From assembly GCA_028281535.1 (NCBI GenBank), contig JANQJS010000012.1, positions 107,185-171,184 on the forward strand: 64,000 bases of DNA. Direction: 5' to 3'. Both the position numbers and the translations under genes were made by a program. Shown one piece after another: positions 1,196 to 63,705 of the stretch. The number at the start of each line of letters is the position of its first letter. Within the stretch, counting starts at the first letter, position 1. The notes beneath the pieces are model-generated. The model saw only the letters and a list, made by a program, of their open reading frames with translations, was not told the DNA's origin and made no database searches. This DNA comes from Sedimentisphaerales bacterium (lineage in GTDB: Bacteria > Planctomycetota > Phycisphaerae > Sedimentisphaerales > SM23-30).

Positions 1196-1867
1196 TTATA
1201 GTTGATGACGCTTACGCAACCAGCCAACCATTATCGTACCTAAAGACCCCAGTAATAATGCACCAGGAGCAGGGACGGTAGGAGGGCCTTGTGAGCCTTC
1301 GTCAAATTCATCTTCTGGATATTGAATTGGACTTAATTGAGGAGCAACATAGGTACGCATCGTTAAGTTGTCGATACCGATGCCATCAACACCTTCGCCA
1401 CCAAACCAAATGTTTGAGATAGCAGAAGAATATTCTTTGGAATAAGTTGATGAGCTTGTTGAGCTCGCTGAGAGTTCTTGTTGATCAATGATGTTGTTGT
1501 TCACATCATAGGCTGTGTACATAAAGTATGAGTTTGCACTTGGGTTAAATAAAGCCCAATCAAAGCTGATGGTATCAAACTGAGCGTTGGCAAAGTAAAT
1601 ATTTGCATAAGAATAGTTTGAATTCACCGTTGTCAGGAATTGGGTGTTGTTAAATGAGCTGTCTGAGCCAATTACGCCATAGCGAACTGTGACATCTGAG
1701 CCATAATGGTTGGTCATATATGCACTGGCATGAGAAGAGCTGTGATTGCCAGTGGGGTAGGCTGTAACGCTGCTGTGATCAAAATCAAATGTCGTGAAAC
1801 CAGCGAATGCGTTGCCAGCGAATGCAAAAATAACCAATGCTTGTACGAAGTAACGTAATTTTTTCAT
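1196..1867 (-). CDS. Secreted protein with PEP-CTERM sorting signal
   Basis: N-terminal signal MKKLRYFVQALVIFAFAGNAFA. C-terminal VPAPGALLLGSLGTIMVGWLRKRHQL is a P-A-P motif plus TM helix plus basic tail. Confidence 0.75.
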   Translation of the reverse strand: MKKLRYFVQALVIFAFAGNAFAGFTTFDFDHSSVTAYPTGNHSSSHASAYMTNHYGSDVTVRYGVIGSDSSFNNTQFLTTVNSNYSYANIYFANAQFDTISFDWALFNPSANSYFMYTAYDVNNNIIDQQELSASSTSSSTYSKEYSSAISNIWFGGEGVDGIGIDNLTMRTYVAPQLSPIQYPEDEFDEGSQGPPTVPAPGALLLGSLGTIMVGWLRKRHQL

Positions 1868-2286
1868 GATTTATGACTCCTTAGTCAAATCTGAAATGTG
1901 TAACACTAAATCTTATGTGTTTATAAATTGCAAAGCCGGTGCCAGCGTTAAAACCACCTTCAGATAAATCGTATGTGTTTATATATCAATACTTTAATGT
2001 TATTTAAAATCTTAAGTCAGGCCTTTTCCACGTGTAACGATTGTGCTGGATGTTGAATAGAAAACACACAGTTATCGGACCTTAGGAGGCTCCGTATTCA
2101 TAAGTCATTAGTAATTAAGAGGCTGGAAGGAGGTGTTGTTTTGTTTACAATAAAGTGCATGTTGTGTTAAGGTGGGTAGTTTTGAGTTGTTTTGATTAGA
2201 CCATTTAAGTGAATTGGGAGGAAATCAGGTTCGGTAACATATTTTCAAATAAGCATTAAAAAAAGATTGAAATCATCCGGATGACT

Positions 2287-2398
2287 CTGTAGAATTCTCT
2301 ATTCTTTACCGCACGAGGTAGTGTGATACTTCATGTGGGGCTGGATGCACGCGGCAGGCCAGCTCAAGCCTCCGGTAAAGTCTACAGTAGGTTTTTTG
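2287..2398 (+). ncRNA. Candidate structured small RNA of unknown family
   Basis: Helix CTGTAGA (2287-2293)/TCTACAG (2381-2387) stacks on CTTTACCG (2304-2311)/CGGTAAAG (2373-2380). Inner helices are GAGGT/GCCTC and GCTGG/CCAGC. A T6 run lies at 2392-2397. No ORF. Confidence 0.25.
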
Positions 2399-2481
2399 GA
2401 AACCTGACCGCGTCTGATCTATTTAAATATCAGACAGACTATCGAGAATTTTTTTCGATGAACCAAATAATAGAATATTGT

Positions 2482-2553
2482 TACCCGATGGTGTAATTGG
2501 CAACACACAAGTTTTTGGTACTTGCATTCCTGGTTCGAGTCCAGGTCGGGTAG
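2482..2553 (+). tRNA. tRNA-Gln (anticodon UUG)
   Basis: Manual cloverleaf: 7-bp acceptor TACCCGA/TCGGGTA with U1-A72, D arm GTGT/ACAC, anticodon loop TTTTGGT, T arm CCTGG-TTCGAGT-CCAGG. No encoded CCA. Confidence 0.9.
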
Positions 2554-2588
2554 CTCTAAATTTTAATTCTAACGTCTGGTGAAATGTC

Positions 2589-3542
2589 ATGAGTAAAAGC
2601 GTCGCAATCATTATGGCTGCGGGTAAAAGTACCCGTATGAAAACCACCTTGCCCAAGGTGATGCATAAGGTCTCTCATCGTCCCATGTTGGCCTATGTCT
2701 TGGATGCATGTCGTCAAGCAGGCATTGAGAAAATGGTCGTTGTTGTTGGCTATGGCAAAGAGATTATTATGGATGCTTTTAAAGATGATCAAGATATTGT
2801 TTGGGTTGAGCAAACCGAGCAGTTGGGGACTGGTCATGCTGTGATGTGTTGCGAAGACGAATTGAAAGATTTTGATGGCCAAACGATCGTGCTTTGTGGT
2901 GATGGCCCTTTGATTCAAAGTCAATCACTTGACACTTTAATTTCTACCCATTCCGAAGAAAACGCCCAGGCTACCTTGATCACTGCCATGGTGGATGATC
3001 CAAAAGGTTACGGGCGAATTTATAGAGACCCGTCCGGCAAGTTATTGGGTATCGTCGAGCATAATGATTGCACCGATGAGCAACTGAAAATTTGTGAAAT
3101 CAATCCCAGTTATTATTGTTTTGACAATCAGCTGTTATTTGAGCTTCTAAAGCAAGTGAAACCAGACAATGCCAAGGGGGAGTATTACGTAACCGATGTT
3201 TTAAAAATGATCATTGATTCTGGTAAGAAGGCTGTGGCAATCGAAGGGGTAGATCCTGAAGATGTTCTCAGTGTGAATTCCCGGGATCAGTTGGTTGTTG
3301 TTAATAAAATGATGCAACAGAGAGTGCAGCGAAAACTGATGGCTTCCGGTGTGACGATTATTGATCCGGAAACCACATGGCTCGACAACCGTGTAGAAAT
3401 TGGTCAGGATACAATTATTGAACCTTTTACTTATATTGAAGGGCCGATGGTTGTGCCGCCGCAAAGTCGTATAGGACCGTTTGCCTATTATTGTGATGGC
3501 CAAGAGCAAGACTTTTTAGTAGCGAGGAAGGCTGGCGTTTAG
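2589..3542 (+). CDS. glmU: GlmU-like UDP-N-acetylglucosamine pyrophosphorylase (uridyltransferase domain only; acetyltransferase beta-helix truncated)
   Basis: MSKSVAIIMAAGKSTRMK..LPKVMH matches the nucleotidyltransferase signature. Order glmU-prs-ctc-pth is as in Bacillus. Length is 317 aa versus ~455 aa typical; only ~60 aa of hexapeptide repeats precede the stop, which abuts the prs ATG. Confidence 0.75.
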   Translation: MSKSVAIIMAAGKSTRMKTTLPKVMHKVSHRPMLAYVLDACRQAGIEKMVVVVGYGKEIIMDAFKDDQDIVWVEQTEQLGTGHAVMCCEDELKDFDGQTIVLCGDGPLIQSQSLDTLISTHSEENAQATLITAMVDDPKGYGRIYRDPSGKLLGIVEHNDCTDEQLKICEINPSYYCFDNQLLFELLKQVKPDNAKGEYYVTDVLKMIIDSGKKAVAIEGVDPEDVLSVNSRDQLVVVNKMMQQRVQRKLMASGVTIIDPETTWLDNRVEIGQDTIIEPFTYIEGPMVVPPQSRIGPFAYYCDGQEQDFLVARKAGV

Positions 3543-4499
3543 ATGGTAGTACCCGGGAACATCCGTATTTTTAGTGGTACAGCGAATCCGGATTTGGCAG
3601 TAAAAATTGCTGATTATATTAAATTGGATTTGGGTCGAACAAAGATCGAACCTTTTCCAGATGGTGAAACATTGGTCAAGTTGGAAGATGATGTGCGTGG
3701 GCGCGATTGCTATATTGTGCAATCGACCTGTCCACCTGTTAATGACAACTTGATGGAATTATTGATTTTTATTGATTGCTTGAGGCGGGCGAGTGCGATG
3801 CGAATTACGACGGTATTACCATATTTTGGTTATGCTCGTCAGGATCGTAAAAGCGAAGGTCGTACACCGATTAGTGCTAAGCTTGTGGCGAATTTAATAA
3901 CGACCGCAGGTGCTGATCGTGTGTTAGCGATGGATCTTCATGCAGAGCAGGTTCAAGGCTTTTTTGATATTCCCGTGGATCATTTGAATTCTGTGCCGGT
4001 GATTGTGGATTATTTCCGCAAGCTGGATCTGGAAGATAAGATTCTGGTTTCACCTGATGTTGGTAATGTGAAAACGGCCAGTACGTATGCACAGCAGTTG
4101 GACGTAGAGTTGGCTGTGATTGATAAGCGTCGTAAAAGTGGTAGTGAAGCGATTGCTACGCGTATTATCGGTGATGTCAAAGGCAAGAATGCTTTGATGG
4201 TGGATGATATGGTGACGACGGCTGGAACGGTTTGTTCTGCGGCCTGTTTGTTAAAAGAATATGGTGTTAACAGTATTCATGTTGCTGCGACACATGGCTT
4301 GTTTGCTGGTCCTGCCGTTGAGCGACTCAAGCAGGCACCGATTGATGAAGTGGTTATTACAGATACTGTTCCTTTGAACGGGAAAGCTGCGGAATTGGAT
4401 AAAGTAAAAGTATTGACAGTCTCTGAGTTGTTAGGTGAAGCGATCGTTCGGATTCACCAGAATAAATCAGTGAGTGAGATTTTTAAGCAATATAATTAA
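3543..4499 (+). CDS. prs: Ribose-phosphate pyrophosphokinase
   Basis: IFSGTANPDLA, YFGYARQDRK and the PRPP-binding loop LMVDDMVTTAGT. Conserved position after glmU. Confidence 0.95.
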   Translation: MVVPGNIRIFSGTANPDLAVKIADYIKLDLGRTKIEPFPDGETLVKLEDDVRGRDCYIVQSTCPPVNDNLMELLIFIDCLRRASAMRITTVLPYFGYARQDRKSEGRTPISAKLVANLITTAGADRVLAMDLHAEQVQGFFDIPVDHLNSVPVIVDYFRKLDLEDKILVSPDVGNVKTASTYAQQLDVELAVIDKRRKSGSEAIATRIIGDVKGKNALMVDDMVTTAGTVCSAACLLKEYGVNSIHVAATHGLFAGPAVERLKQAPIDEVVITDTVPLNGKAAELDKVKVLTVSELLGEAIVRIHQNKSVSEIFKQYN

Positions 4500-4534
4500 T
4501 TGATGATAATAGGATAATGATTTAAGAGGTAGAC

Positions 4535-5173
4535 ATGGCTGAAACAATTGTATTAAAAGCAGAAAAAAGAGATAAGTGCGGTACCGGAAGTTCTCAGAAG
4601 TTGAGACGTGATGGTGGTTTGCCAGCAGTGATCTATGGTCACAAAGAAGAGCCCATCGCGATTTCATTGAATTACCATGACGTTGCACTTGAGCTGCAGC
4701 ATCATCATCGCTTGTTGGATGTTGAGTTAGATGGATCTAAGCAGCAGTTTTTGGTCAAGGATGTTCAGTATGATTATATCGGTGAAAAGATTTTACACAT
4801 CGATTTGACGCGTGTTGATCTGGATGAGCGTGTTGCCGTGACGGTCAGTGTTGAACTGAAGGGAATACCTGCTGGTGCGTCTGAAGGTGGCGTGTTGGAT
4901 CAGGTGCTAGCTGACATTGAGTTAGAATGTCTTGTGACGAGTATTCCAGAGAGCCTTCGTGTCAATGTCTCTGATATGCAGGTGGGTGATACCATTTTGG
5001 CTAAAGATGTTGAGTTGCCTCAGGGTGCTGTTTTAGTTACGGATTCAGAATTACTTGTCGCAGCATTGCGTGTGGTTGGCGAAGTGGACGCATCAGCACT
5101 TGAAGGTGATGAAGCTGAGCCTGAAGTGATTGGCGCCAGTGACAAAGAAGATGATGAAGAAACTGCTGAATAA
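4535..5173 (+). CDS. rplY: 50S ribosomal protein L25 / general stress protein Ctc form
   Basis: LRRDGGLPAVIYG, FLVKDVQYD, acidic C-terminal tail. Lies between prs and pth. Confidence 0.9.
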   Translation: MAETIVLKAEKRDKCGTGSSQKLRRDGGLPAVIYGHKEEPIAISLNYHDVALELQHHHRLLDVELDGSKQQFLVKDVQYDYIGEKILHIDLTRVDLDERVAVTVSVELKGIPAGASEGGVLDQVLADIELECLVTSIPESLRVNVSDMQVGDTILAKDVELPQGAVLVTDSELLVAALRVVGEVDASALEGDEAEPEVIGASDKEDDEETAE

Positions 5174-5186
5174 TTAAGAGACGAGC

Positions 5187-5753
5187 ATGAAGTTAATTGT
5201 GGGATTAGGAAATCCCGGGGCTGAGTATGAGAATAGTCGGCATAATGTCGGTTTTGCAGCCATTGATATGATTGCTCGGCGTTGGGCTATCGATGTCCAA
5301 CAGAATAAGCATAAAGCACTTTTTGGTAAAGGACTCTTTCAGCAGGAAAAAGTGATGCTGATGAAACCTTTAACCTATATGAATCGAAGTGGTAGCAGTG
5401 TTTCAGATGCAATGAGTTTTTATAAAATTGAAACTGAGAATTTATTAGTGATTGTTGACGATTTACATTTGAATTTGGGCCAGTTGCGGCTAAGAAACCA
5501 GGGGACCGCTGGCGGTCATAATGGTTTAAAGGATATTATTTCCTGGCTGGGTACCAATAAATATAGTCGCCTTCGTGTCGGTATCGAAAACAGCCCGTTT
5601 GGCAATCAAGTGGGACATGTTTTGGGTAACTTTAACGCTGAAGAGAATGACATTATGCAAAAAGCCTACAACAAAGTCGCTGATGCGGCTGAGTGCTGGT
5701 TGTCGCAGGGCGTTCAGGCTGCGATGAATTTATATAATCGTCAAGATGATTAA
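5187..5753 (+). CDS. pth: Peptidyl-tRNA hydrolase
   Basis: MKLIVGLGNPG..Y..SRHNVGF, MKPLTYMNRSG, GGHNGLKDI motifs. Confidence 0.95.
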   Translation: MKLIVGLGNPGAEYENSRHNVGFAAIDMIARRWAIDVQQNKHKALFGKGLFQQEKVMLMKPLTYMNRSGSSVSDAMSFYKIETENLLVIVDDLHLNLGQLRLRNQGTAGGHNGLKDIISWLGTNKYSRLRVGIENSPFGNQVGHVLGNFNAEENDIMQKAYNKVADAAECWLSQGVQAAMNLYNRQDD

Positions 5754-5865
5754 CGCAGGAATTCCAGATAGACATAATTTGATAGTAAAATTTAGGATAA
5801 GATAAACATGATTAAAAGAAATAAGATTGAACAGAATTGCACTCAAGTGTGCAGGAGGTGTTGCC

Positions 5866-6354
5866 TTGGCTGAGCAAACAAAACGATTGTATGAAGCGAT
5901 GTTCCTGATTGATGCAGCGATTGCATCTGCCGATTGGGATGGCGTGATGGCTGCGATCGATACCATTATGAAACGTGCGGACGCTGAAGTCGTCAGTACG
6001 CGTAAATGGGATGAGCGTCGTTTAAGTTATTCCGTCGATGGATGTGCGAATGGTGTTTATGCTTTGAGTTATTTCAAAGCATTGCCAGATGCGATTACAG
6101 GTTTAGAACGTGACGTAAAATTAAATGAGTTGTTTTTGCGTGTGTTAGTTCTATCGGGTGAGCATGTTACTGATGAGATGCTTGCTGCTCCAACGCCTTG
6201 TATGAAAGCAAAGGAAGATTCAGAAAAGGCCGCACAGGAATCAGCTGCTTCAGAAGCTGCACCTGCCGCTGAATCAGATGTTGCAGTCTTGGAATCAGAA
6301 GAGATTCCAGATGCTGGTATTGATGTTTTAGAAGCCGACCTGGAAACAGAGTAG
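5866..6354 (+). CDS. rpsF: 30S ribosomal protein S6 (acidic C-terminal extension)
   Basis: KRLYEAMFLID.. matches the S6 N-terminus. In-frame TTG at 5866 lies 7 nt after AGGAGG (5853-5858); the track ORF from 5827 is probably over-extended. rpsF-ssb-rpsR-rplI synteny. Confidence 0.88.
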   Translation: MAEQTKRLYEAMFLIDAAIASADWDGVMAAIDTIMKRADAEVVSTRKWDERRLSYSVDGCANGVYALSYFKALPDAITGLERDVKLNELFLRVLVLSGEHVTDEMLAAPTPCMKAKEDSEKAAQESAASEAAPAAESDVAVLESEEIPDAGIDVLEADLETE

Positions 6355-6424
6355 GTTTGTCAAGCATCAATGACACGTTTAAAACATGTATCATAAATCG
6401 ATTCGTCGATGTTAAGGAGAATAT

Positions 6425-6853
6425 GTGATGGCAAGTTTTAATAAAGTGATCATGCTGGGTAATTTGACCCGAGATCCTCAGTTGTCTTATCTGCCAAGTC
6501 AGACACCTGTGGTTGAGTTTGGTTTAGCGACCAATCGGCGTTGGACAGGCAATGATGGCCAAGCCCGTGAAGAAACTTGTTTTGTCGATTGTCGTGCGTT
6601 CGGTCGCATGGCAGAAAATATTAGTAAATATTGCAAAAAGGGTCGTCCTCTTATGGTAGAAGGGCGATTGAGCTTCGATCAGTGGGAAGCCCAGGATGGC
6701 AGCAAACGCAGTAAGCATCGTATTACGGTAGAGACATTTAACTTTGTCGATGGTGGTGGTGCTGGCGGAGGCGGCGGATCGAAATCTTTTGGTGATGACA
6801 ATAGTAATGTAGGTGCACCAGGTGGTGTGCCAGATGATGATATACCGTTTTAG
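6425..6853 (+). CDS. ssb: Single-stranded DNA-binding protein
   Basis: OB-fold N-terminus NKVIMLGNLTRDPQL, Gly-rich linker, C-terminal DDDIPF tip. Confidence 0.95.
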   Translation: MMASFNKVIMLGNLTRDPQLSYLPSQTPVVEFGLATNRRWTGNDGQAREETCFVDCRAFGRMAENISKYCKKGRPLMVEGRLSFDQWEAQDGSKRSKHRITVETFNFVDGGGAGGGGGSKSFGDDNSNVGAPGGVPDDDIPF

Positions 6854-6921
6854 TGAACACATGCTGGTTATTTCTGCAAATGAACTAGCACTTTGAATTA
6901 AAGTAGTATTGGAGAATTTTT

Positions 6922-7185
6922 ATGGCAATGAGAACCAAGTCTAAAAAACGCATGAAACCGGTTCGTGAACGACTACGTTGTCGTTTTTGTGATGAAGTCA
7001 AAGGTACTGATCAAAAACGTGCCTATATTGACTACAAAGATATCGAAACTTTGCAAAAGTTGTTGACGCAGCGTGGCAAGATTTTCTCACGTAAACGAAG
7101 TGGGAACTGTGCTTATTGTCAGCGTAAAGCTCAAAAAGCAATTAAGCAAGCTCGTTTTATGGCGTTATTGCCTTACGTAAACTAG
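6922..7185 (+). CDS. rpsR: 30S ribosomal protein S18
   Basis: C-R-F-C..IDYKD...L..F....GKI..R..(S)G.C...QR motif pattern plus synteny. Confidence 0.9.
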   Translation: MAMRTKSKKRMKPVRERLRCRFCDEVKGTDQKRAYIDYKDIETLQKLLTQRGKIFSRKRSGNCAYCQRKAQKAIKQARFMALLPYVN

Positions 7186-7215
7186 TCCCAGGAAAGAAGA
7201 CTGGAGGATATTCAT

Positions 7216-7716
7216 ATGAAGTTATTATTACATGCTGATGTTTCCAAATTGGGATATTTTGGCGATGTGGTTGAAGTGTCAGAAGGCTATGCTCGCAATT
7301 GTTTGTTGCCGCAACGTTTGGCAGTGATTCCAACGGAAGAAAATATTAAGGAAATTGAAGAAGAACGTGCCGCAAAAGCGGAAGAGCGTCGATTAGCTAG
7401 AGAAGCTTTGGTTGGTGCAGCCGAGCGCGTGAATGGCAAAGAAATCACTATCGAAGTGTTGGCAAATGACCAAGGACATTTATTTGGTTCTGTGAGCCCA
7501 AGTGACATTGCTAAGGCTTTACGCGAAGCAGGCGGTGAAGTGCAGGCCAGGGATGTTATTCTGCATGATCCTATTCGACAAGTTGGTGATTTTGATGTAT
7601 TATTGCAGTTTGCCGAAGATATAGAAGCCACCATTCAACTCCATGTTGTTCGCCCGGAGGAGCAGAGCGATGACACAGAGACAACAGAAGACGATCAGGC
7701 CGAATCAAGCGATTGA
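7216..7716 (+). CDS. rplI: 50S ribosomal protein L9
   Basis: MKLLLHADVSKLGYFGDVVEVSEGYARNCLLPQRLA is a typical L9 N-domain. Confidence 0.9.
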   Translation: MKLLLHADVSKLGYFGDVVEVSEGYARNCLLPQRLAVIPTEENIKEIEEERAAKAEERRLAREALVGAAERVNGKEITIEVLANDQGHLFGSVSPSDIAKALREAGGEVQARDVILHDPIRQVGDFDVLLQFAEDIEATIQLHVVRPEEQSDDTETTEDDQAESSD

Positions 7717-9067
7717 ACCACAGTTTGACACTGTGAGTGGATCGGAGCAGCGTTTGCCGCCTCAGTCGTTAGAAGCTGAGATGGGCGTGCTCGGGTCCAT
7801 GGTGTTAGATAGTCAGATTATTGGTGATATTCTTCGAATTATTCGTGGAGAATATTTCTATCGTCAAGATCATCGATTGATCTATGAATCGCTCTTAGGT
7901 TTGTATGAAGCGAATAAACCTGTTGACCTTATTGTTTTACGTGATGCTCTTCAAAGTCAGGGCCAACTAGAACAAGTCGGTGGGGTTGATTACTTGGTCC
8001 GAATTGCTGAAAGTGTTCCTTCTGCAGCGAATGGCGTTTATTACGCACAAATTGTTCGCGATAAGGGATTACTTCGAAACCTTATCACTGTGACGAATGA
8101 TATTAGCAATAATGCTTACGCTGCCCATGGTGATGTAGGCAATATTCTTAATGAGGCAGAAGAAAAAATCTTCGAGGTAACTGAGCAGAAAATTTCAGGC
8201 AATGAAACGTCCATGCATGAAATTATGACGCAGGTATTTGCTGCTATAGAAGAGCGTGGCCAAGGTGTGACGGGGGCGCCAACAGGATTTTTTGAATTGG
8301 ATGAACTGACCAGTGGGTTGCAAAAAGGGGAGATGGTTATTATTGCTGCTCGTCCCAGTATGGGTAAAACCGCATTGGGTATGAATATTGCTGAACATGT
8401 CGGTGCAGATAACAAAATTCCTGTCGCGGTGTTTTCTTTAGAAATGTCCTGTCAGCAATTAGCCGAACGTATGTTGTGTGGCCGGGCTCATGTCGATTCG
8501 AATAATTTACGAAAAGGTATGTTGTCAGAATCAGAGTATGAAGCTTTGGTAGGAACATCTGGTGAGCTTTCTGAAGCAAATATTTTTGTGGATGATCAAG
8601 CCCACTTGAGTCCTTTGGAACTGCGAGCCAAAGCGCGTCGCTTAAAAATGAAACATGATATTCAGATGGTGATCATTGATTACTTGCAGCTCATGTATGT
8701 GCCAGGCGCGGAATCGCGTCAGCAGGAGATTGGTATCATCTCAAGACATGTCAAAGCATTAGCACGTGAAATCAATGTTCCTGTGGTTGTGATGAGCCAA
8801 TTGAATCGTGGTCCCGAGGGACGCGAAGGCCATCGCCCTCGCATGAGTGATTTGCGTGAAAGTGGTAATATTGAGCAGGATGCGGATGTTGTGATGTTAT
8901 TGCATCGTGAAGATTATTTTCATAATGAATTGGATTATGAGCCAACGAATACTGCTGAGGTGATTATCGCTAAACAGCGTAACGGCCCAACGGGTGTTGT
9001 AGAACTTGCATGGCATCGGCAATGGACACGTTTTGAAAACTTATCTAAATCGCCAGAACCCTATTAA
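7670..9067 (+). CDS. dnaB: Replicative DNA helicase DnaB
   Basis: PPQSLEAEMGVLGSMVLD, Walker A ARPSMGKTA, IIDYLQLM, SQLNR. ATG at 7670 has GGAGGA 8 nt upstream; the track start at 7643 is also possible. Confidence 0.93.
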   Translation: MTQRQQKTIRPNQAIEPQFDTVSGSEQRLPPQSLEAEMGVLGSMVLDSQIIGDILRIIRGEYFYRQDHRLIYESLLGLYEANKPVDLIVLRDALQSQGQLEQVGGVDYLVRIAESVPSAANGVYYAQIVRDKGLLRNLITVTNDISNNAYAAHGDVGNILNEAEEKIFEVTEQKISGNETSMHEIMTQVFAAIEERGQGVTGAPTGFFELDELTSGLQKGEMVIIAARPSMGKTALGMNIAEHVGADNKIPVAVFSLEMSCQQLAERMLCGRAHVDSNNLRKGMLSESEYEALVGTSGELSEANIFVDDQAHLSPLELRAKARRLKMKHDIQMVIIDYLQLMYVPGAESRQQEIGIISRHVKALAREINVPVVVMSQLNRGPEGREGHRPRMSDLRESGNIEQDADVVMLLHREDYFHNELDYEPTNTAEVIIAKQRNGPTGVVELAWHRQWTRFENLSKSPEPY

Positions 9068-57181: not shown

Positions 57182-58579
57182 TTATTTTGTGGGTGTGATG
57201 ACAAAATTGGTTGTTTTGTTCGCTTTGAAATTAAGCCAAAAGACCAGGTTGGTTTGGTTGTCTTTGTTTTCATATCCAATACGGAAATCTTTTCCTGGTT
57301 TGATGGGTTTGCCATCAATTTTAAGTTCAACACCTTTTTTGCCCCAGCCTTTTAAAACGAATGCCGGGTTAATGATGGTGACCTTTTTGGCGTCTTTGTC
57401 CTCATCATAATATTCAAATTGGTCACCACCTTCATACCAGGGACCGAGTTGAAATTCAAACGTTTGAGGTTTATTGTTTTTGCATTCGAGGACATAGGCT
57501 TTTTGGCGATGGTCATAAACAGGGTTTTTATAGGTGGGCTCGAAGTCTTCCATGATAAACTGTGGTGCGTTTATCCATGAGTCAGCAAGCGAAATAACTT
57601 TTTCGGGTTTTTCATCTGATTTGATCATACCGGAAAAGTAAACATGTTCGAGTGTGTAATTGGTTTGTCGATAGAATCGCCAGTTGAGAATATGGCCAAG
57701 CGAAGTGGCGTAACCTCGTTTTTTACTTCCCCAGCATTGAAAGATCAATGGGAGATTGTCTTCCGGTTCATAAGGTTCAATTTCAGCGCCATGCGGGATC
57801 GCAATAGTAAAGGGGCGGTATTTTGATTTGAGGTTTAGGATCATCATGTTGGCATAACGGAATGTATCGAAGTTTTTGGGATAGGGTTTAAAGGAAAAAT
57901 CTTTATATTCACCTTCCATATTAAGTAGGGTTAAAGCATTCACTTCAATATCATCGATCGGGTCTTTGTTGGGTCGGCCATAGATGAGCATTTCGTGAAA
58001 TTCATGGACGACGTTGGGGATGATTTCGCGAGCATCGCCATCGGTGACAGGCCAACTCCAGTCAGTCAGACCGGTGTAAATCTTTGCATGGCGAATATGC
58101 GTGCCATCTGGATAAATTGTGTACCATTCATCCACCCAATCGCCATCGCCATAAGGGCTGTTACTGTGAATATAGGTGTGAGCGATTTTATCTTCGTTAT
58201 TGCTAAGGGCACTGTGCCAGCGAACGATAATTCTTGCATCATTTTGGCTTTCGATCCACATGCGTGTGTAGACATTATTTTTGTCATTTAAGATTTCACA
58301 GGTCATGCCGCCATCTTCGATTTTGGGATCATAGGTTTCTGTCCAACCATTGATATACTTGATGCCATTTTCTGTGACACTATGGACATAGCAGGGCAAA
58401 TCAAAGTGCATTTCGGTGGGGAGTAGGTCGAAAGTGACCTTGACCGCCTCTTTTAAGCGAGGCTTTTGTTTGATTTTTTCAGTGGGGCCGATGGCTTGAA
58501 ATTTTGATGATGCATCGACTGAAAAGGACACTAGGGAAATGATAAAAAATACAACAACGATTTTTTTCAACTGGAGCAT
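57182..58579 (-). CDS. Hypothetical secreted protein (465 aa)
   Basis: Signal peptide MLQLKKIVVVFFIISLVSFSVDA. No motif I can assign. Embedded in the secreted glycan-related block. Confidence 0.5.
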   Translation of the reverse strand: MLQLKKIVVVFFIISLVSFSVDASSKFQAIGPTEKIKQKPRLKEAVKVTFDLLPTEMHFDLPCYVHSVTENGIKYINGWTETYDPKIEDGGMTCEILNDKNNVYTRMWIESQNDARIIVRWHSALSNNEDKIAHTYIHSNSPYGDGDWVDEWYTIYPDGTHIRHAKIYTGLTDWSWPVTDGDAREIIPNVVHEFHEMLIYGRPNKDPIDDIEVNALTLLNMEGEYKDFSFKPYPKNFDTFRYANMMILNLKSKYRPFTIAIPHGAEIEPYEPEDNLPLIFQCWGSKKRGYATSLGHILNWRFYRQTNYTLEHVYFSGMIKSDEKPEKVISLADSWINAPQFIMEDFEPTYKNPVYDHRQKAYVLECKNNKPQTFEFQLGPWYEGGDQFEYYDEDKDAKKVTIINPAFVLKGWGKKGVELKIDGKPIKPGKDFRIGYENKDNQTNLVFWLNFKANKTTNFVITPTK

Positions 58580-58828: not shown

Positions 58829-58909
58829 GTCTCGCTCAAATGTAGGCGACAACGGAGCCGGGTTAGTGACTCCATAATCGCGGCGTTCTTAAAGTAGGCG
58901 AACGCCTAC
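58829..58909. repeat. Family-2 structured repeat, copy E3
   Basis: GTCTCGCT-CAAATGTAG-GCGA..GGAG/CTCC..TCGC-GGCG, then hairpin GTAGGC-GAAC-GCCTAC (58894-58909), followed on the plus strand by a T-rich tract. Confidence 0.6.
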
Positions 58910-59784
58910 AGTTCTTTTATTTTTATGTTTTTGAAATAGGCTTTCATTTTGGTGCCATCATGCACTTGTAAGCCAATTTTACCTTCTGTATGTGCTTGAG
59001 GTGAATTATCGACATGGTCCAGAACCAACTCGCCATTGACCCAGTGTTGCAGGTGATTGCCTTGACAGCGGATGACAATGCTATTCCAACCGAGTGGTTT
59101 AAATGCTTTGTTTAGTTTTTCTTGGTCACCGAGATGACGATAGTTCGGGCGGACAAACCAATCTCCAATAGAACCCCAGTAGTTACCGACGACCCATTCA
59201 AAACCATCATCCTCTTCTTCTGACTCCTCTTCATCCATCTCTTCTTCGTGTTCTTGAGCTTCTGCTTGCTCTAAGTCGTATTCTTCTTGTTCTATGACGA
59301 ACATGTCAAACTCGTATGCAGCAGGGGCCATGAAAGGTTGCCATTCATCTTCTTCTTCTGGTTCGCCTTCATCTTCCATCTCTTCTTCTTTGGGTTCGTC
59401 TGCTTCGCCTTGCTCATCCTCTTCTTCATCTTCATCGTGACCTGTAAAGAGAAATGGGGTCGCACGATACCAAATACCGCTATTGCGATAGAGATCACCT
59501 ACAATTTTTGCCTCCAGGTGCAATTCGAAATCTTTGAAGGTATTGTAGGTATAGAGCCAGGAAAATTTTTCTGCTACTTTATCCAAGTCTCCAGAGACCA
59601 TGGCGCCATCTTCAATCGACCAAACACCGTCGCTGTTATCCCAATGGGTAAAATCTTTGCCATCAAAAAGTGAGACAAATCCACGTTTGTCAGAATCACA
59701 ACAGGATTGTGTTGTTTGGCAACCATTAAATAATAATAGGGTTAAAAGCGTGAGGATAAAAGATTGAGATATAACTCGAGACAT
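58906..59784 (-). CDS. DUF1080 (3-keto-disaccharide hydrolase-like jelly-roll) lipoprotein with two poly-acidic insertions
   Basis: Lipobox LLFNGC; FDGKDFTHWD..WSIEDGAM and the C-terminal LQVHDGTKMKAYFKNIKIKEL are DUF1080 hallmarks. The ATG ending at 59784 is preferred over the track start at 59850. Confidence 0.7.
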   Translation of the reverse strand: MSRVISQSFILTLLTLLLFNGCQTTQSCCDSDKRGFVSLFDGKDFTHWDNSDGVWSIEDGAMVSGDLDKVAEKFSWLYTYNTFKDFELHLEAKIVGDLYRNSGIWYRATPFLFTGHDEDEEEDEQGEADEPKEEEMEDEGEPEEEDEWQPFMAPAAYEFDMFVIEQEEYDLEQAEAQEHEEEMDEEESEEEDDGFEWVVGNYWGSIGDWFVRPNYRHLGDQEKLNKAFKPLGWNSIVIRCQGNHLQHWVNGELVLDHVDNSPQAHTEGKIGLQVHDGTKMKAYFKNIKIKEL

Positions 59785-59878
59785 ACCATGGTTCCTTTCT
59801 CGGGAAGATAAACGATGGACTCTTCTGTATTCTATTTGGGTAGCGAACAAATAATCTTATACTGAAGTAAGCGGTAAC

Positions 59879-60778
59879 TTACAATTCTTTAATTTTAATA
59901 TTCTTAAACTGAATTTTCATGTCTGCACCCTGGAAAACTTGCAGGGCAATTTTTCCAGCCAGGGGAGCGAGCTCGTCGGAGTCGGTAAAGTCAACCATTA
60001 GCACACCATTTATCCAGTGTTGCACGCGGTTGCCTTCACAGCGAATGACGACTTTATTCCAATCATTATAATGAAAGGCTTTTTTGACCTCGTCGAGATT
60101 TTCCGTTTTTAACTCATGCAAATCGCGTCGATAGGAATCGTGAAGTGTGCCCCAGAAATGGGTCATTTCAGAGAGGCCTTCATCCTTGATTTCTTCTTCG
60201 CTATCGATAGAGTAGATATCGAATTCATAGCCAGTCACAGCCACAATGACAGGACGCTCAGCATCTTTTTCGTCTTCGTCATCGTTATCATCTGCTTGTT
60301 CATCGTCTAGATCTTCGCTTTGCTCTAGTTCAGGCTCTTCTTCGCCATTGTCTTCAAATTCTTCATCTTCATCTTCATCTTCATCTTCATCCTCTTCTTC
60401 TTCGACATAAGCAAACGGTCTAGCTCTGTGCCAGATTCCACTGTTACGATTAAGTTCGCCAGTCATTTTCGCTTCAAGGTGAAGTTCATAATTTTTGTAG
60501 ACACCAGTGGAATACATGACAGGATATTCTTCTATGCTTGTATCAGAATCACCCGCAGTTAATGCTCCATCTTCAACGCGCCAAAGTCCTGTCTTGTCTT
60601 CCCAGCCCGTGAGATCTTTTCCGTTGAACAATGATACATATTCATCATTTGAGAATATCGATCCTATTGCTGTGATAGGACATTTCGTTTCGCAGTTACT
60701 GCTGCAACCATTTAAAAATAATAGGGTCATACAGCTTAGCAATAGCATGGGTAATGTTCTGAAAATTACCATATTCAC
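59879..60778 (-). CDS. DUF1080 lipoprotein paralog with two poly-acidic insertions
   Basis: Lipobox FLNGC; FNGKDLTGWE..WRVEDGAL; C-terminal LQVFQGADMKIQFKNIKIKEL. Colinear with the neighbouring paralog, including insert positions. Confidence 0.7.
   Translation of the reverse strand: MNMVIFRTLPMLLLSCMTLLFLNGCSSNCETKCPITAIGSIFSNDEYVSLFNGKDLTGWEDKTGLWRVEDGALTAGDSDTSIEEYPVMYSTGVYKNYELHLEAKMTGELNRNSGIWHRARPFAYVEEEEDEDEDEDEDEEFEDNGEEEPELEQSEDLDDEQADDNDDEDEKDAERPVIVAVTGYEFDIYSIDSEEEIKDEGLSEMTHFWGTLHDSYRRDLHELKTENLDEVKKAFHYNDWNKVVIRCEGNRVQHWINGVLMVDFTDSDELAPLAGKIALQVFQGADMKIQFKNIKIKEL
60361..60390. repeat. Perfect hexanucleotide microsatellite (TTCATC)x5 inside a CDS
   Basis: Read directly: ttcatc repeated five times. 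It encodes the (ED)n run on the minus strand. Confidence 0.9.
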
Positions 60779-60809
60779 ATGATCCTTTCTTTAAGGAAAA
60801 GCATTTTTA

Positions 60810-63383
60810 TTAATTAAAATCTTTCATGCCAAGTTTAACGCTTTTTGTCTTAGCACTTAAAGAATATGTTTTGCCATTATAGTGAATTTTGGTAGATACG
60901 CCGTGCGGATTTTTAATCGATGCAGATTTCAATTGTCCTTTATCCCAGGTCAGATCAATTTTAAAACCACCGCGGGCGGCGGTGCCTTCAATGGATCCTG
61001 CTGACCATGCATCTGGCAGGGCGGGTAGAAGGTAAATATGTCCTTTTTCTGACATCATGAGCATTTCAATCATCAATCCAGGTAGGCCACCACAAATATC
61101 GACATTAAAAATAGAGTCTGGATCATGGTAGGATACCAAGCCGGGGGTCCAATATTGTTTGCTGGTAAGCCAGTCGACACATTCGTAAGCACGTTTGACA
61201 TCTTGAATATGTGCCGCGGCTAATCCAAGATGTACGATACCAAATGCCATTTCAGCACCATTTCTACCGCGGCGATATTCCAGGCGGTTTTCAATCGCTT
61301 GCTTGGTTGCTTCGATGAGTTCAGGGCTTGATTTGATATCTGGATCGACTTCATACCAGAGAGGGTACAAGTGTGAAGCATGACGATGTTCATCATCATT
61401 TTTTAAGCCAGGCCAGAGCCATTCTTTAAGTGCACCATCTTCACCGATCATGTAATTTGGCATTTTTGCTAACATGGATTTCCACTTTTTGACACGCTTT
61501 GGATCAATCTCCACATCTTTGCTGAGTGTAATGAGGTTTTGGAATAATTGTTTTGCTGCAGCAACATCCATGGTTGCGTTAGGTGTCGCAGTCGATTTTG
61601 AACCTTTAGGGCCAATCTCTGGTGAATAGGAAGGAACAAACACCAGTTTGCCATCTTTCTCAACAGTAAGGAAATCTTCAAAGAATAGGGCCGCTTCCAA
61701 CATGAATGGCAATGCGCGTGTTTTTAGAAATTCTTCATCTTGCGTGTATTGCCAATAGTCATAGTAGAATTGAGCCATCCAAGGTGTACCGGCTGTCCAG
61801 AAGATGTGTGGGAAATAGCCATCGTAATGATTGTTCAGGCCATGATCACTGCTACGAGAGGGTGTCATGATACCACGAGCGTTAAATAATCGTTTGGCAT
61901 TGCTACGATAGTGATCCATAAATTGTGCAAAGTGATCTAAGAACACAAGTGTGCCTTCGTGATAACCACCAGCCAGGTTGTAAGCAATGGCCGTTGGAGC
62001 ATTCCCATTTAATGTAAAATCGCTGCTCCATGCCGGGCGCCAAGTGCCACCCCAGATCCCTTGAAGGGTTGGTGGAATCTTGCCTGTGCTGCAAATGACA
62101 GCGTAGCGAGCCGCATCGAATAGCTTTTGTTGGAACGATAATTTTTCAACATTGGGTTTAGCTTTTGCTAATAGTTGTTCAGATGTGAGATCGTCATCAT
62201 TGCCATTTAACTCAAGTTTGACACGTCCAAATAAATCACTATGAATCGCAACGTGTGATTTGAGCAATTTATCGTAGGACCTTGAGCTTTTAGCAATAGA
62301 GCGTTTTATTTCTTGGATGGGTTTTGGAGAAAAATCATCCAGCACCTCTACTTTGGCTGTCAATAAAACTTCATTAGCATTAGAAATGTTTAGCCAGCCA
62401 TCACCGTCAGTGATTTTTCCATTCTTAGTGGTAACCTTAGCGGCTACGATATAGCCGTGGATCTGATGATCCCAATGTTTGTTAAATTCAGTGGTATACT
62501 CAAGCCAATTGTTAGCAGCGATGGCATTCGTGGCTTTGAGGACTTGTTCTGTTGGAATTCTAGCGTCTACTTCTTCCTCTTCATCTTCTTCACCTTCCTT
62601 TGTGAATTCTTCTTCGTCGCCTTCATCATCATCCTCTTCGTGCTCTTCTTCATCGTTTTCTTCTGAATCAGATTCATCGCTTTCTTCTTCGTCGCCTTCC
62701 TCTCCTTCTTCCTCCACTTCACTAGCGTGTGGGAGTTGGGCGAGTTGTAGACGGCAATTGATTGGGGTATTGTTTGGGCTCGAGATTTTTAGTACTACAA
62801 AGCCATCTGCTCGTGAGACGAACATTTGTTTTTGGAAAATACCTGCATCGCTTTCCCAGCCAACAGTGGTTTCAGCGGTTTGGAAGTTTGTTGAGCGTGC
62901 ATAGTTTTTTATTTCGGATTGGTTCTGCATTTCAATATGCAACTGACAAGCAGGGATGAGTGGGTCTGTCCAAACCATGCCTGGGATTTCATTTTCTTTT
63001 CCTATATCTTCAATAAGCTTAGCTGATTTATGGCCTTGGCCATTAAGAATCCACTCACGAATTTTATCGAGATGGTCGCCAGTAGGAGGTGCTTCGACTG
63101 GGTAGTTTTCAGGGAAGAACAATCTTTCGTGGCTCAATGCTATTGCGTCATTGAGGGCATTGCCAGGCACAAGAGCACCTACGGTGCCGTTACCTGTGAT
63201 CATGGAGTGTTCCCATCTTTTGGCTGGTTTTGAACTGACGTACCCCTGGGTCGGTTGCGTCATAGAAAGTTTATCTAATGAATTGTGTTGCCCATGACTG
63301 TAGGCTGTCACACTGAATAATGTCATGAGGAAAAATGTTGAGAAGGTAGCTTGCACACGAATTTTTTGGCTGATTTTTGACAT
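60810..63383 (-). CDS. GH95-like glycoside hydrolase (alpha-L-fucosidase family architecture) with a ~55-aa poly-acidic insertion
   Basis: Signal peptide. The N-terminal GNGTVGALVPG....D.I.LSHERLF resembles the GH95-type N-terminal domain, and the protein is long (857 aa) with an alpha-helical catalytic-type C-terminal half. Family call is from memory. Confidence 0.62.
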   Translation of the reverse strand: MSKISQKIRVQATFSTFFLMTLFSVTAYSHGQHNSLDKLSMTQPTQGYVSSKPAKRWEHSMITGNGTVGALVPGNALNDAIALSHERLFFPENYPVEAPPTGDHLDKIREWILNGQGHKSAKLIEDIGKENEIPGMVWTDPLIPACQLHIEMQNQSEIKNYARSTNFQTAETTVGWESDAGIFQKQMFVSRADGFVVLKISSPNNTPINCRLQLAQLPHASEVEEEGEEGDEEESDESDSEENDEEEHEEDDDEGDEEEFTKEGEEDEEEEVDARIPTEQVLKATNAIAANNWLEYTTEFNKHWDHQIHGYIVAAKVTTKNGKITDGDGWLNISNANEVLLTAKVEVLDDFSPKPIQEIKRSIAKSSRSYDKLLKSHVAIHSDLFGRVKLELNGNDDDLTSEQLLAKAKPNVEKLSFQQKLFDAARYAVICSTGKIPPTLQGIWGGTWRPAWSSDFTLNGNAPTAIAYNLAGGYHEGTLVFLDHFAQFMDHYRSNAKRLFNARGIMTPSRSSDHGLNNHYDGYFPHIFWTAGTPWMAQFYYDYWQYTQDEEFLKTRALPFMLEAALFFEDFLTVEKDGKLVFVPSYSPEIGPKGSKSTATPNATMDVAAAKQLFQNLITLSKDVEIDPKRVKKWKSMLAKMPNYMIGEDGALKEWLWPGLKNDDEHRHASHLYPLWYEVDPDIKSSPELIEATKQAIENRLEYRRGRNGAEMAFGIVHLGLAAAHIQDVKRAYECVDWLTSKQYWTPGLVSYHDPDSIFNVDICGGLPGLMIEMLMMSEKGHIYLLPALPDAWSAGSIEGTAARGGFKIDLTWDKGQLKSASIKNPHGVSTKIHYNGKTYSLSAKTKSVKLGMKDFN

Positions 63384-63576
63384 GTTATAATTACTCCGGT
63401 TAAATGTTGATCAAAAACCTTAATTGGATCAGACTGTAGGTGGGTAGTGTACGTACAATTATATCTAAAAGTTCTTTTAGATCAAATCATTGTGTTTGGA
63501 ATTGGTAAATATTGAACAAGTTGGTTGATTTTAAACATGCCAATATTTGTCACTGGAAATTTTGTAAAAAAGGGGC

Positions 63577-63632: not shown

Positions 63633-63705
63633 GCGGGTGTAGCTCAGCGGCTAGAGCGTCACGTTGCCAACGTGAATGTCGAGGGTTCGAATCCCTTCAC
63701 CCGCT
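63633..63705 (+). tRNA. tRNA-Gly (anticodon GCC)
   Basis: Manual cloverleaf: acceptor GCGGGTG/CACCCGC, anticodon loop TTGCCAA, T arm GAGGG-TTCGAAT-CCCTT, followed by a T run. Confidence 0.9.

Follow-up and report, generated by a model that had tools for sequence, protein, structure and literature searches.

The solved members of glycoside hydrolase family GH95, among them the α-L-fucosidases/α-L-galactosidases of Xanthomonas (7KMQ), Bacteroides ovatus (4UFC), and Bifidobacterium (AfcA, 2EAB), share a three-domain architecture. In AfcA, we take E566 to be the catalytic Glu, N421 and N423 to form the Asn-x-Asn pair, and D766 to be the activating Asp. The characterized enzymes of family PF06439 (DUF1080) have a Gfo/Idh/MocA oxidoreductase and a TIM-barrel lyase as partners, and hold a metal, proposed to be Ca2+, in a catalytic channel flanked by finger loops (10.1101/2024.03.25.586180). 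Here, we analyzed a stretch of 64,000 nucleotides from Sedimentisphaerales bacterium (assembly GCA_028281535.1, contig JANQJS010000012.1, positions 107,185 to 171,184), hereafter called the window, in which one GH95 enzyme and two PF06439 proteins encoded by adjoining genes carry long acidic inserts. The enzymes are members of these known families; what is unusual is their acidic loops, and they constitute neither a new kind of system nor new domains.

Marine carbohydrate-active enzymes (CAZymes), as described in the Saccharophagus degradans literature, contain low-complexity linkers made of polyserine or Glu-Pro repeats. The tracts of the window resemble them in being repetitive, disordered, and hydrophilic, and in belonging to exported glycan-degrading enzymes. 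However, the marine linkers lie between domains, whereas the window tracts are within-domain loops consisting of little else than Asp and Glu. Calsequestrin-type Ca2+ buffers and "entropic bristle" solubility tags are polyanionic disordered segments as well. Composition and predicted disorder are similar, but here the segments sit in bacterial extracytoplasmic enzymes. The acidic low-complexity regions of prokaryotes, known chiefly from halophiles, have been proposed to promote solubility or to bind cations (Ntountoumi et al. 2019, PMC6821194). Tracts rich in Asp and Glu (D/E) are shared with that case, yet the proteins of the window are not acidic overall, and the tracts are confined to three adjoining exported enzymes, inside folded domains. 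We found nothing specific in the literature on acidic loop expansions in GH95, DUF1080, or Planctomycetes CAZymes, nor on their co-occurrence in fucosidase clusters.

The three genes are adjoining and co-oriented on the minus strand (58906-63383):

60810..63383, minus strand: GH95-family glycoside hydrolase, 857 aa, with an N-terminal signal peptide (Pfam PF14498, PF22124, and PF21307)

59879..60778, minus strand: PF06439 (DUF1080) paralog 2, putative lipoprotein (LLFLNGC), from Pfam (E 2.1e-34), alignments, and a lipobox-like motif

58906..59850, minus strand: PF06439 (DUF1080) paralog 1, putative lipoprotein (LLLFNGC), from Pfam (E 3.9e-35), an AlphaFold2 (AF2) model, and Foldseek

Their inserts are the following:

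62562-62723, minus strand: GH95 insert, aa 221-274, 38 of 54 residues D/E

60254-60406, minus strand: paralog 2 site 1, aa 125-175, 36 of 51 residues D/E, containing (GATGAA)x5

60164-60211, minus strand: paralog 2 site 2, aa 190-205, 7 of 16 residues D/E, a short and mildly acidic loop, SIDSEEEIKDEGLSEM

59341-59445, minus strand: paralog 1 site 1, aa 136-170, 23 of 35 residues D/E

59194-59295, minus strand: paralog 1 site 2, aa 186-219, 20 of 34 residues D/E

We consider it probable, though well short of certain, that these tracts are polyanionic disordered loops generated by slippage and maintained in composition, carried by the exported enzymes of one operon, and that their role is generic and physico-chemical rather than one of specific binding.

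Among the six-frame open reading frames (ORFs) of at least 100 aa in the window, a density of 22-23 D/E per 30 residues was reached only by the GH95 and the two PF06439 proteins, the runner-up having 14. Given the 12.6% D+E of the window proteins, the probability of at least 22 D/E in 30 is 3e-14 per 30-residue segment. Across the 64 kb, D/E runs of at least four residues outside the three genes amounted to two short ones. The sole other notable acidic stretch was the C-terminal tail (14/30 D/E, ending EDDEE) of a 212-aa protein encoded among translation-related genes (4535-5173, plus strand). All the peptides quoted by the first-pass annotation, which had drawn attention to these inserts, were found where it had placed them, and the protein families and insert positions it had proposed were borne out by Pfam PF06439, by the GH95 architecture, and by homologue alignments.

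The Logan assembly of run SRR20820735, which is independent, reproduced the GH95 and paralog 1 proteins exactly. The one break between its contigs (end of L001, start of L003) fell within the (GATGAA)n repeat of paralog 2, at 60360-60400. Since the Logan assembly encodes identical GH95 and paralog 1 proteins, the tracts are real sequence and not an artefact of one assembly; an assembly artefact was ruled out, two of the three proteins being exact in the Logan contigs and the third being split only at a 41-nt period-6 repeat. This break also illustrates that tracts such as (GATGAA)n fragment short-read assemblies. Antisense coding was rejected as well: the plus-strand ORFs at 62479-62904 (141 aa, poly-Ser) and 59287-59673 (128 aa, Phe-rich) are shadows of the GAN tracts and not genes.

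The GH95 protein matched PF14498 (E 2.8e-30), PF22124 (E 2.1e-76), and PF21307 (E 9.1e-19). It thus displayed the N-terminal β-sandwich, (α/α)6 catalytic domain, and C-terminal β-sandwich of its family, in agreement with the secondary structure of the AF2 model. Its best solved relatives were 7KMQ, 8ZBV, 2RDY, and 4UFC. It has the same three domains as the Xanthomonas, B. ovatus, and Bifidobacterium enzymes, along with the conserved N-x-N, E, and D: N461, E589, and D762 were invariant and N459 nearly invariant among 72 homologues, and they align to the N-I-N, SPE, and D of 7KMQ. As far as sequence conservation can tell, these residues are consistent with an active enzyme. In contrast to the solved GH95 proteins, the window protein has a 54-residue disordered acidic loop in its N-terminal β-sandwich. 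HMMER alignments to 7KMQ and 8ZBV stopped at query residues 220-223 and resumed only at 321-356, and so gave no counterpart for the loop. The AF2 model had a mean predicted local distance difference test score (pLDDT) of 90, and its sole segment below 50 was residues 220-273. The insert, with a pLDDT of 39-46 over most of its length, was placed between strands 208-215 and 282-290 of the N-terminal β-sandwich.

The PF06439 proteins scored 122 and 119.6 bits against a model cut-off of 26.8. With the model of paralog 1 as a query, Foldseek returned BT2157/BT2, AL2, and a 3-keto-glycoside eliminase/hydratase at 17-21% identity (3OSD, 8TDA, 8V31, and 8RR2; E ~1e-11 to 1e-10). Paralog 1 has the same jelly-roll with finger loops as the solved BT2157/BT2 and AL2, but two of its loops are expanded into acidic disordered tracts and it appears to be lipid-anchored. 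Its AF2 model had a mean pLDDT of 84, with the jelly-roll above 90 and the inserts at ~52-62 (57-62 at site 1), the second insert being partly helical. Low pLDDT at the inserts as compared with values above 90 in the cores agreed with their being surface loops, and the models predict that they are disordered loops leaving the catalytic fold intact. Neither a Gfo/Idh/MocA oxidoreductase nor a sugar-phosphate-isomerase-like (TIM-barrel) lyase was found in the window cluster, and none was called beside the PF06439 genes of loci L002 and L004. Because these partner genes are absent from the cluster, an assignment to the 3-keto-glycoside (oxidative, non-Koshland) pathway is not supported.

We then considered the history of each loop. 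Identity of this GH95 subfamily to its nearest database relatives was only 42-48%. Among 112 subfamily members (38-49% identical full-length), the loop site, "LxQLP...(D/E)LI(E/S)", had a median of 16 residues with 7 D/E and ~0.5 K/R, typically as the short acidic pattern "LxQLP..DEEE..ELIE". More distant GH95 proteins had a non-acidic "PKGQGGWKAEQAFKEGVK" at this site. From the different fold, the annotation had concluded that the GH95 insert reflects independent gain or selection. The notion of an independent gain needs revision, as the loop was already acidic (at least 30% D/E) in 86% of the 112 members and reached 35 residues or more in 6 of them, the window protein being the extreme of the length distribution. 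The other extreme loops were those of P0124 (30/42 D/E) and P0094 (19/38 D/E). Given that most of the subfamily has a short acidic loop at the homologous site, the alignments indicate that the GH95 tract is an expansion of a loop ancestrally acidic within the subfamily and not a new gain. Some of the closest GH95 relatives came from hypersaline lake sediment (Ga0180438) and others from deep-sea sediment, an origin that gives only a hint as to habitat.

An exhaustive phmmer search for PF06439 yielded 4,215 relatives. Among the best 148, acidic tracts were present only in P0159, P0161, and paralog 2 itself (P0160), and a profile search added P0306, P0307, and P0308. Insert positions were read from alignments anchored with insert-free homologues. 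They showed that site 1 is one homologous hypervariable loop of 11-64 residues, which often starts with "GH". It was neutral or basic in most of the subfamily (e.g. "LFEGSRDNKSFEAPS" or "GHGKKKGDSTL"), and acidic and expanded in P0003, P0159, P0161, P0306, P0307, and P0308. Site 2 was long only in paralog 1 (34 aa) and P0002 (32 aa); in paralog 2, its length was comparable with that of most homologues. Hence, of the statement that both paralogs are interrupted at the same two loops flanking the (Y)EFD strand, the part that held is that both are interrupted on either side of it, but site 2 of paralog 2 is only ~10 residues longer than in ordinary homologues.

A neighbour-joining tree was built with the insert columns removed. 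Its deep nodes were weakly supported, and only the pairing of paralog 1 with P0002 was relied on. These two were sisters with 100% bootstrap, and yet site 1 of P0002 reads just "GHDQHDVE", without expansion. P0158 was as near to paralog 1 as paralog 2 is, and its site 1 has only "EEEDE"; P0306 is expanded, yet it was placed among short-loop sequences. Paralogs 1 and 2 were not sisters, in a weakly supported part of the tree. These observations gave no support to the idea that the inserts predate the duplication: P0002 lacks the site-1 expansion, P0158 has only EEEDE, paralog 2 lacks the site-2 expansion, and the paralogs are not sisters, with the reservation made for that part of the tree. The distribution agrees with a hypervariable loop that has expanded and contracted repeatedly. 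P0002 (4102-4905 of L002) is 58-64% identical to paralog 1 and acidic at site 2 only. Its contig, distinct from that of the window but assembled from the same sample, has a GC content of 37% and a tetranucleotide correlation of 0.94 with the window. P0002 is encoded there next to sigma-70, FecR, and Laminin_G_3 genes, and is the sole acidic protein among the seven long ORFs of this contig. Perhaps it represents a third copy, either from the genome of the window or from a sister genome.

The DNA of the inserts was 77-83% purine on the coding strand and consisted of imperfect GAN-codon repeats, for which Tandem Repeats Finder reported periods of 3, 6, 9, 24, and 42. The GH95 insert had periods 3, 9, and 24; paralog 2 site 1 had period 6, with 6.8 copies at 60360-60400 and a near-perfect (GATGAA)x5; paralog 1 site 1 had period 42 at 59353-59432. 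Such a repeat structure is the signature expected of in-frame slippage, which we infer to be the mechanism. As codon-repeat-slippage insertions do, the inserts combine biased composition, tandem-repeat DNA, low model confidence, and length variation among homologues, and many of the non-acidic residues within the tracts (Q, K, G, A, N, H, and V) are one substitution away from GAN codons. No repeat family was seen to be shared between inserts beyond the generic GAN periodicity, and a common DNA cassette or gene conversion was therefore set aside.

The tracts are not a recent single-codon burst, as insert codon usage matches the background: GAA made up 79% of Glu codons in the inserts versus 77% in the rest of the window, and GAT 76% of Asp codons versus 78%. 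In the comparison of paralog 1 with P0002, 80 of 155 identical degenerate residues shared their codon, whereas 74.5 were expected from codon usage alone. Codon sharing being close to this expectation, synonymous sites between the two genes are saturated. Despite this saturation, the site-2 tract has kept its length (34 versus 32) and its strong acidity in both proteins. Since it was kept across such divergence, tract composition is held over long times, whether through selection or because slippage re-amplifies the tract continually.

Is the acidity a trait of the whole organism? The composition sample comprised the 49 predicted proteins of the 64-kb window. They contained 6.0% D, 6.6% E, 6.5% K, and 4.3% R (D+E 12.6%, K+R 10.8%), with a median isoelectric point (pI) of 5.8, and were thus not acid-shifted, in line with the view of the annotation that the inserts do not simply reflect proteome-wide acidity. 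No halophile-type acid shift was seen in these 49 proteins, several exported ones (BamA, a trypsin-like protease, and a 227-aa protein) having a pI of 8.9-9.7. None of the ~10 other exported proteins of the window had an acidic tract. BamA, Skp, the multicopper oxidase, the trypsin-like protease, and the leucine-rich repeat, Laminin_G_3, and 465-aa proteins had at most 11/30 D/E, which agrees with the earlier remark that the other secreted proteins lack such inserts.

The gene layout suggested that the three enzymes are made together. The gaps are 31 nt between GH95 and paralog 2 and 28-91 nt between paralog 2 and paralog 1, and no minus-strand terminator-like site was found within either of them. 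Two further features are relevant:

63458..63485, minus strand: promoter-like site TTGATC-16-TATAAT, ~75 nt upstream of GH95, a consensus match only

57182..58579, minus strand: unk465, an exported 465-aa protein of an uncharacterized family, co-oriented and downstream, a syntenic partner without an acidic insert

Promoter-like sites were not more numerous than expected from shuffled sequence. Owing to the co-orientation, the short gaps, the lack of a terminator-like site in them, and the promoter-like site upstream, GH95, paralog 2, and paralog 1 probably form one transcription unit. The public gene call for paralog 2 (P0160) starts at 60772. For paralog 1, the longest ORF has a TTG start at 59850 and the public call (P0001) an ATG at 59787, the ATG being the more plausible start, since the hydrophobic leader is then N-terminal. 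In both paralogs, this leader ends in NG-C (LLLFNG-C and LLFLNG-C, the latter at 60704-60724). Compared with the lipobox [LVI][ASTVI][GAS]C, the Asn at position -2 is non-canonical. The leader Cys was invariant in a four-sequence alignment (paralogs 1 and 2, P0002, and P0003), and a Cys also follows the hydrophobic region in P0158, P0159, P0161, and P0164. In the clade alignment as a whole, most relatives have such a Cys, P0171 being an exception. This conservation suggests that both PF06439 proteins are putative lipoproteins. Other neighbours of the cluster are, besides unk465, a 227-aa protein without a family and a dihydrodipicolinate synthase-like lyase. A tRNA-Gly(GCC) gene (63633-63705, plus strand) lies 250 nt upstream of GH95, and GC content does not change across it.

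The closest relatives were metagenome-assembled genomes (MAGs) of Planctomycetota, Phycisphaerae, and other Planctomycetes-Verrucomicrobia-Chlamydiae (PVC) lineages or Bacteroidota, at no more than 49% identity. In fucosidase gene clusters of at least four other organisms, we observed acidic tracts in neighbouring exported enzymes, at non-homologous loops. Loci were scored by the maximum number of D/E in any 30 consecutive residues of a protein:

L005, cluster with SusC/SusD: GH95 27; two Laminin_G_3/unk465 proteins 23 and 18

L037, 5.68-Mb contig with Planctomycete-type PSD/PSCyt genes: PF06439 13; Laminin_G_3/unk465 22; GH29 14

L118, GC 55%: GH95 19; sulfatase fusion 18; GH29 14

L052 and L053, metagenome loci: GH95 18 and 14; GH3 14 and 18

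At L118, a 1664-aa sulfatase/PQQ-propeller fusion (1588-6582, 18/30) and a GH29 fucosidase (6810-8588, 14/30) are encoded beside the GH95 P0094 with its expanded acidic loop, which suggests a locus for sulfated fucans. No neighbour scored 14 or more among the ~440 ORFs of the 74 metagenome loci whose GH95 scores at most 13, and none scored 15 or more at the 31 genome loci of the 465-aa family. A Fisher test on the metagenome loci gave p = 0.005, which is indicative only, given that L052-L054 are interrelated and that neighbours share a genome. The co-occurrence of tracts in neighbours is clear. A counter-example was L039, from a hypersaline site, at which the GH95 loop is expanded and the neighbours are ordinary. 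The gene set recurs at L004, which combines a GH95 with P0003 and, at 49% identity, a homologue of unk465 as neighbours. In this genome (GC 59%), the gene for P0003, an acidic PF06439 protein, adjoins the gene (817-1962) for a 4Fe-4S-type protein with a poly-Asp linker (18/30 D/E). The latter protein being cytoplasmic, acidic tracts in the L004 organism are not limited to exported proteins.

The unk465 protein had no match in Pfam, NCBIfam, or the Protein Data Bank. Its relatives occurred at 31 genome loci, in MAGs labelled Planctomycetota, Bacteroidota, Lentisphaeria, Kiritimatiellia, Verrucomicrobia-group taxa, and others. Laminin_G_3 fusion proteins of 700-1000 aa carry this domain too, as their C-terminal part. 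As it repeatedly adjoins GH95 or GH29 fucosidases and PF06439 proteins, unk465 is a candidate for an uncharacterized glycan-active family.

How might these tracts have arisen, and what might they do? The products of the three co-oriented genes are exported proteins of glycan processing, of which the GH95 has a signal peptide and the two PF06439 proteins are putative lipoproteins. According to the explanation we favour, replication slippage would expand GAN-codon (Asp/Glu) repeats in them in frame. Expansion would occur at surface loops tolerant of length change, namely the acidic GH95 loop and the hypervariable PF06439 loop. Tracts would keep gaining and losing units, while their acidic composition would be held over long times. 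They would then be decorations whose composition is selected for, or at least strongly tolerated, rather than new domains or decaying junk. Their most likely effect would be that of a hydrated negative "bristle", which outside the cytoplasm might raise solubility, buffer divalent cations, and limit unwanted adsorption. A number of points weigh against this explanation. The function proposed for the acidic loops is hypothetical. Acidity could have been retained through continual re-amplification by slippage instead of selection. At L004, the second acidic protein is the cytoplasmic Fe-S protein and the GH95 is unexpanded, so that the coupling of tracts to export and to the gene set is imperfect. 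The co-occurrence at other loci is confounded by the shared genome and by the kinship of L052-L054, which makes a genome-level cause inseparable from a pathway-level one. Eventually, that the tracts are not a general trait of the organism holds as far as 64 kb of genome and 49 proteins can show.

Taken further, the tolerance just mentioned would make the tracts neutral low-complexity by-products of slippage, arising in loops that accept any hydrophilic insertion and clustering here owing to shared PF06439 ancestry and an acidic seed in GH95. The DNA repeat structure fits this view, as do the wide-ranging and patchy lengths among close homologues; moreover, outside the three genes the window offers only two short D/E runs able to seed slippage, and with the paralogs counted as one, the adjacency of two marked units is improbable by chance only to the extent of ~0.04. 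We nevertheless hold neutrality to be unlikely, because site-2 length and acidity were kept across saturated synonymous divergence, codon usage is at equilibrium while at least 70% of residues stay D/E, and tracts recur at non-homologous loops of neighbouring exported enzymes in at least four other organisms. That recurrence, within fucosidase-containing clusters and including the L118 sulfatase, would also be expected if the tracts were specific polyanionic binding elements, perhaps high-capacity Ca2+/Mg2+ sites that tether each enzyme to envelope, minerals, or anionic (e.g. sulfated fucose-rich) glycans via cation bridges, or mimics that gate the active site. Cation binding, surface attachment, and interaction with glycans were among the possible roles named by the annotation. 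Acidic clusters are recognized to coordinate Ca, Mg, and Zn (PMC6821194), and characterized PF06439 enzymes have a channel metal, proposed to be Ca2+, with flanking finger loops (10.1101/2024.03.25.586180). Yet the tracts lack a conserved internal motif and occupy non-homologous positions in the different proteins, close relatives do without them, and unk465 of the same cluster has none, which leaves specific binding doubtful in our view, and more so than neutrality. An organism-level adaptation of exported proteins to salt seems very improbable. In its favour, hypersaline lake sediment is the source of some of the closest GH95 relatives (Ga0180438; PMC8036902), halophiles show an enrichment of acidic low-complexity regions (PMC6821194), and acidic tracts co-occur within a genome; but other close GH95 relatives come from deep-sea sediment, the window proteins are not acid-shifted, exported BamA, protease, and 227-aa protein remain basic (pI 8.9-9.7), ~10 exported proteins lack tracts, and the hypersaline L039 combines an expanded GH95 loop with ordinary neighbours.

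A broader proposal, which we put forward tentatively and consider rather unlikely, is that polyanionic disordered loops are convergently selected in the exported enzyme sets of fucoside-degrading clusters (GH95/GH29, PF06439, unk465/Laminin_G_3, GH3, and sulfatase) of sediment bacteria from several phyla. Their gains would be separate events, in unrelated folds and at loops that are not homologous to one another. Such loops could serve to concentrate divalent cations or to bridge them, or else could keep the enzymes mobile within anionic glycan matrices or tethered to these. The recurrence across phyla and the neighbouring 465-aa family are the parts worth following. For enzyme discovery, this family, which travels with fucosidases in several phyla, may be of greater value as a lead.

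If the tracts are only tolerated slippage, they provide a clear example of short acidic loops seeding runaway low-complexity expansion in bacteria, and also a practical warning, as such tracts break short-read assemblies. If they are selected, they would point to an unrecognized design rule for extracellular enzymes acting on complex marine glycans, whereby otherwise standard folds repeatedly acquire charge-rich disordered loops, several enzymes of a single pathway doing so at once. Such a rule, if true, would bear on the solubility, placement, and cation supply of these enzymes, and on CAZyme engineering.

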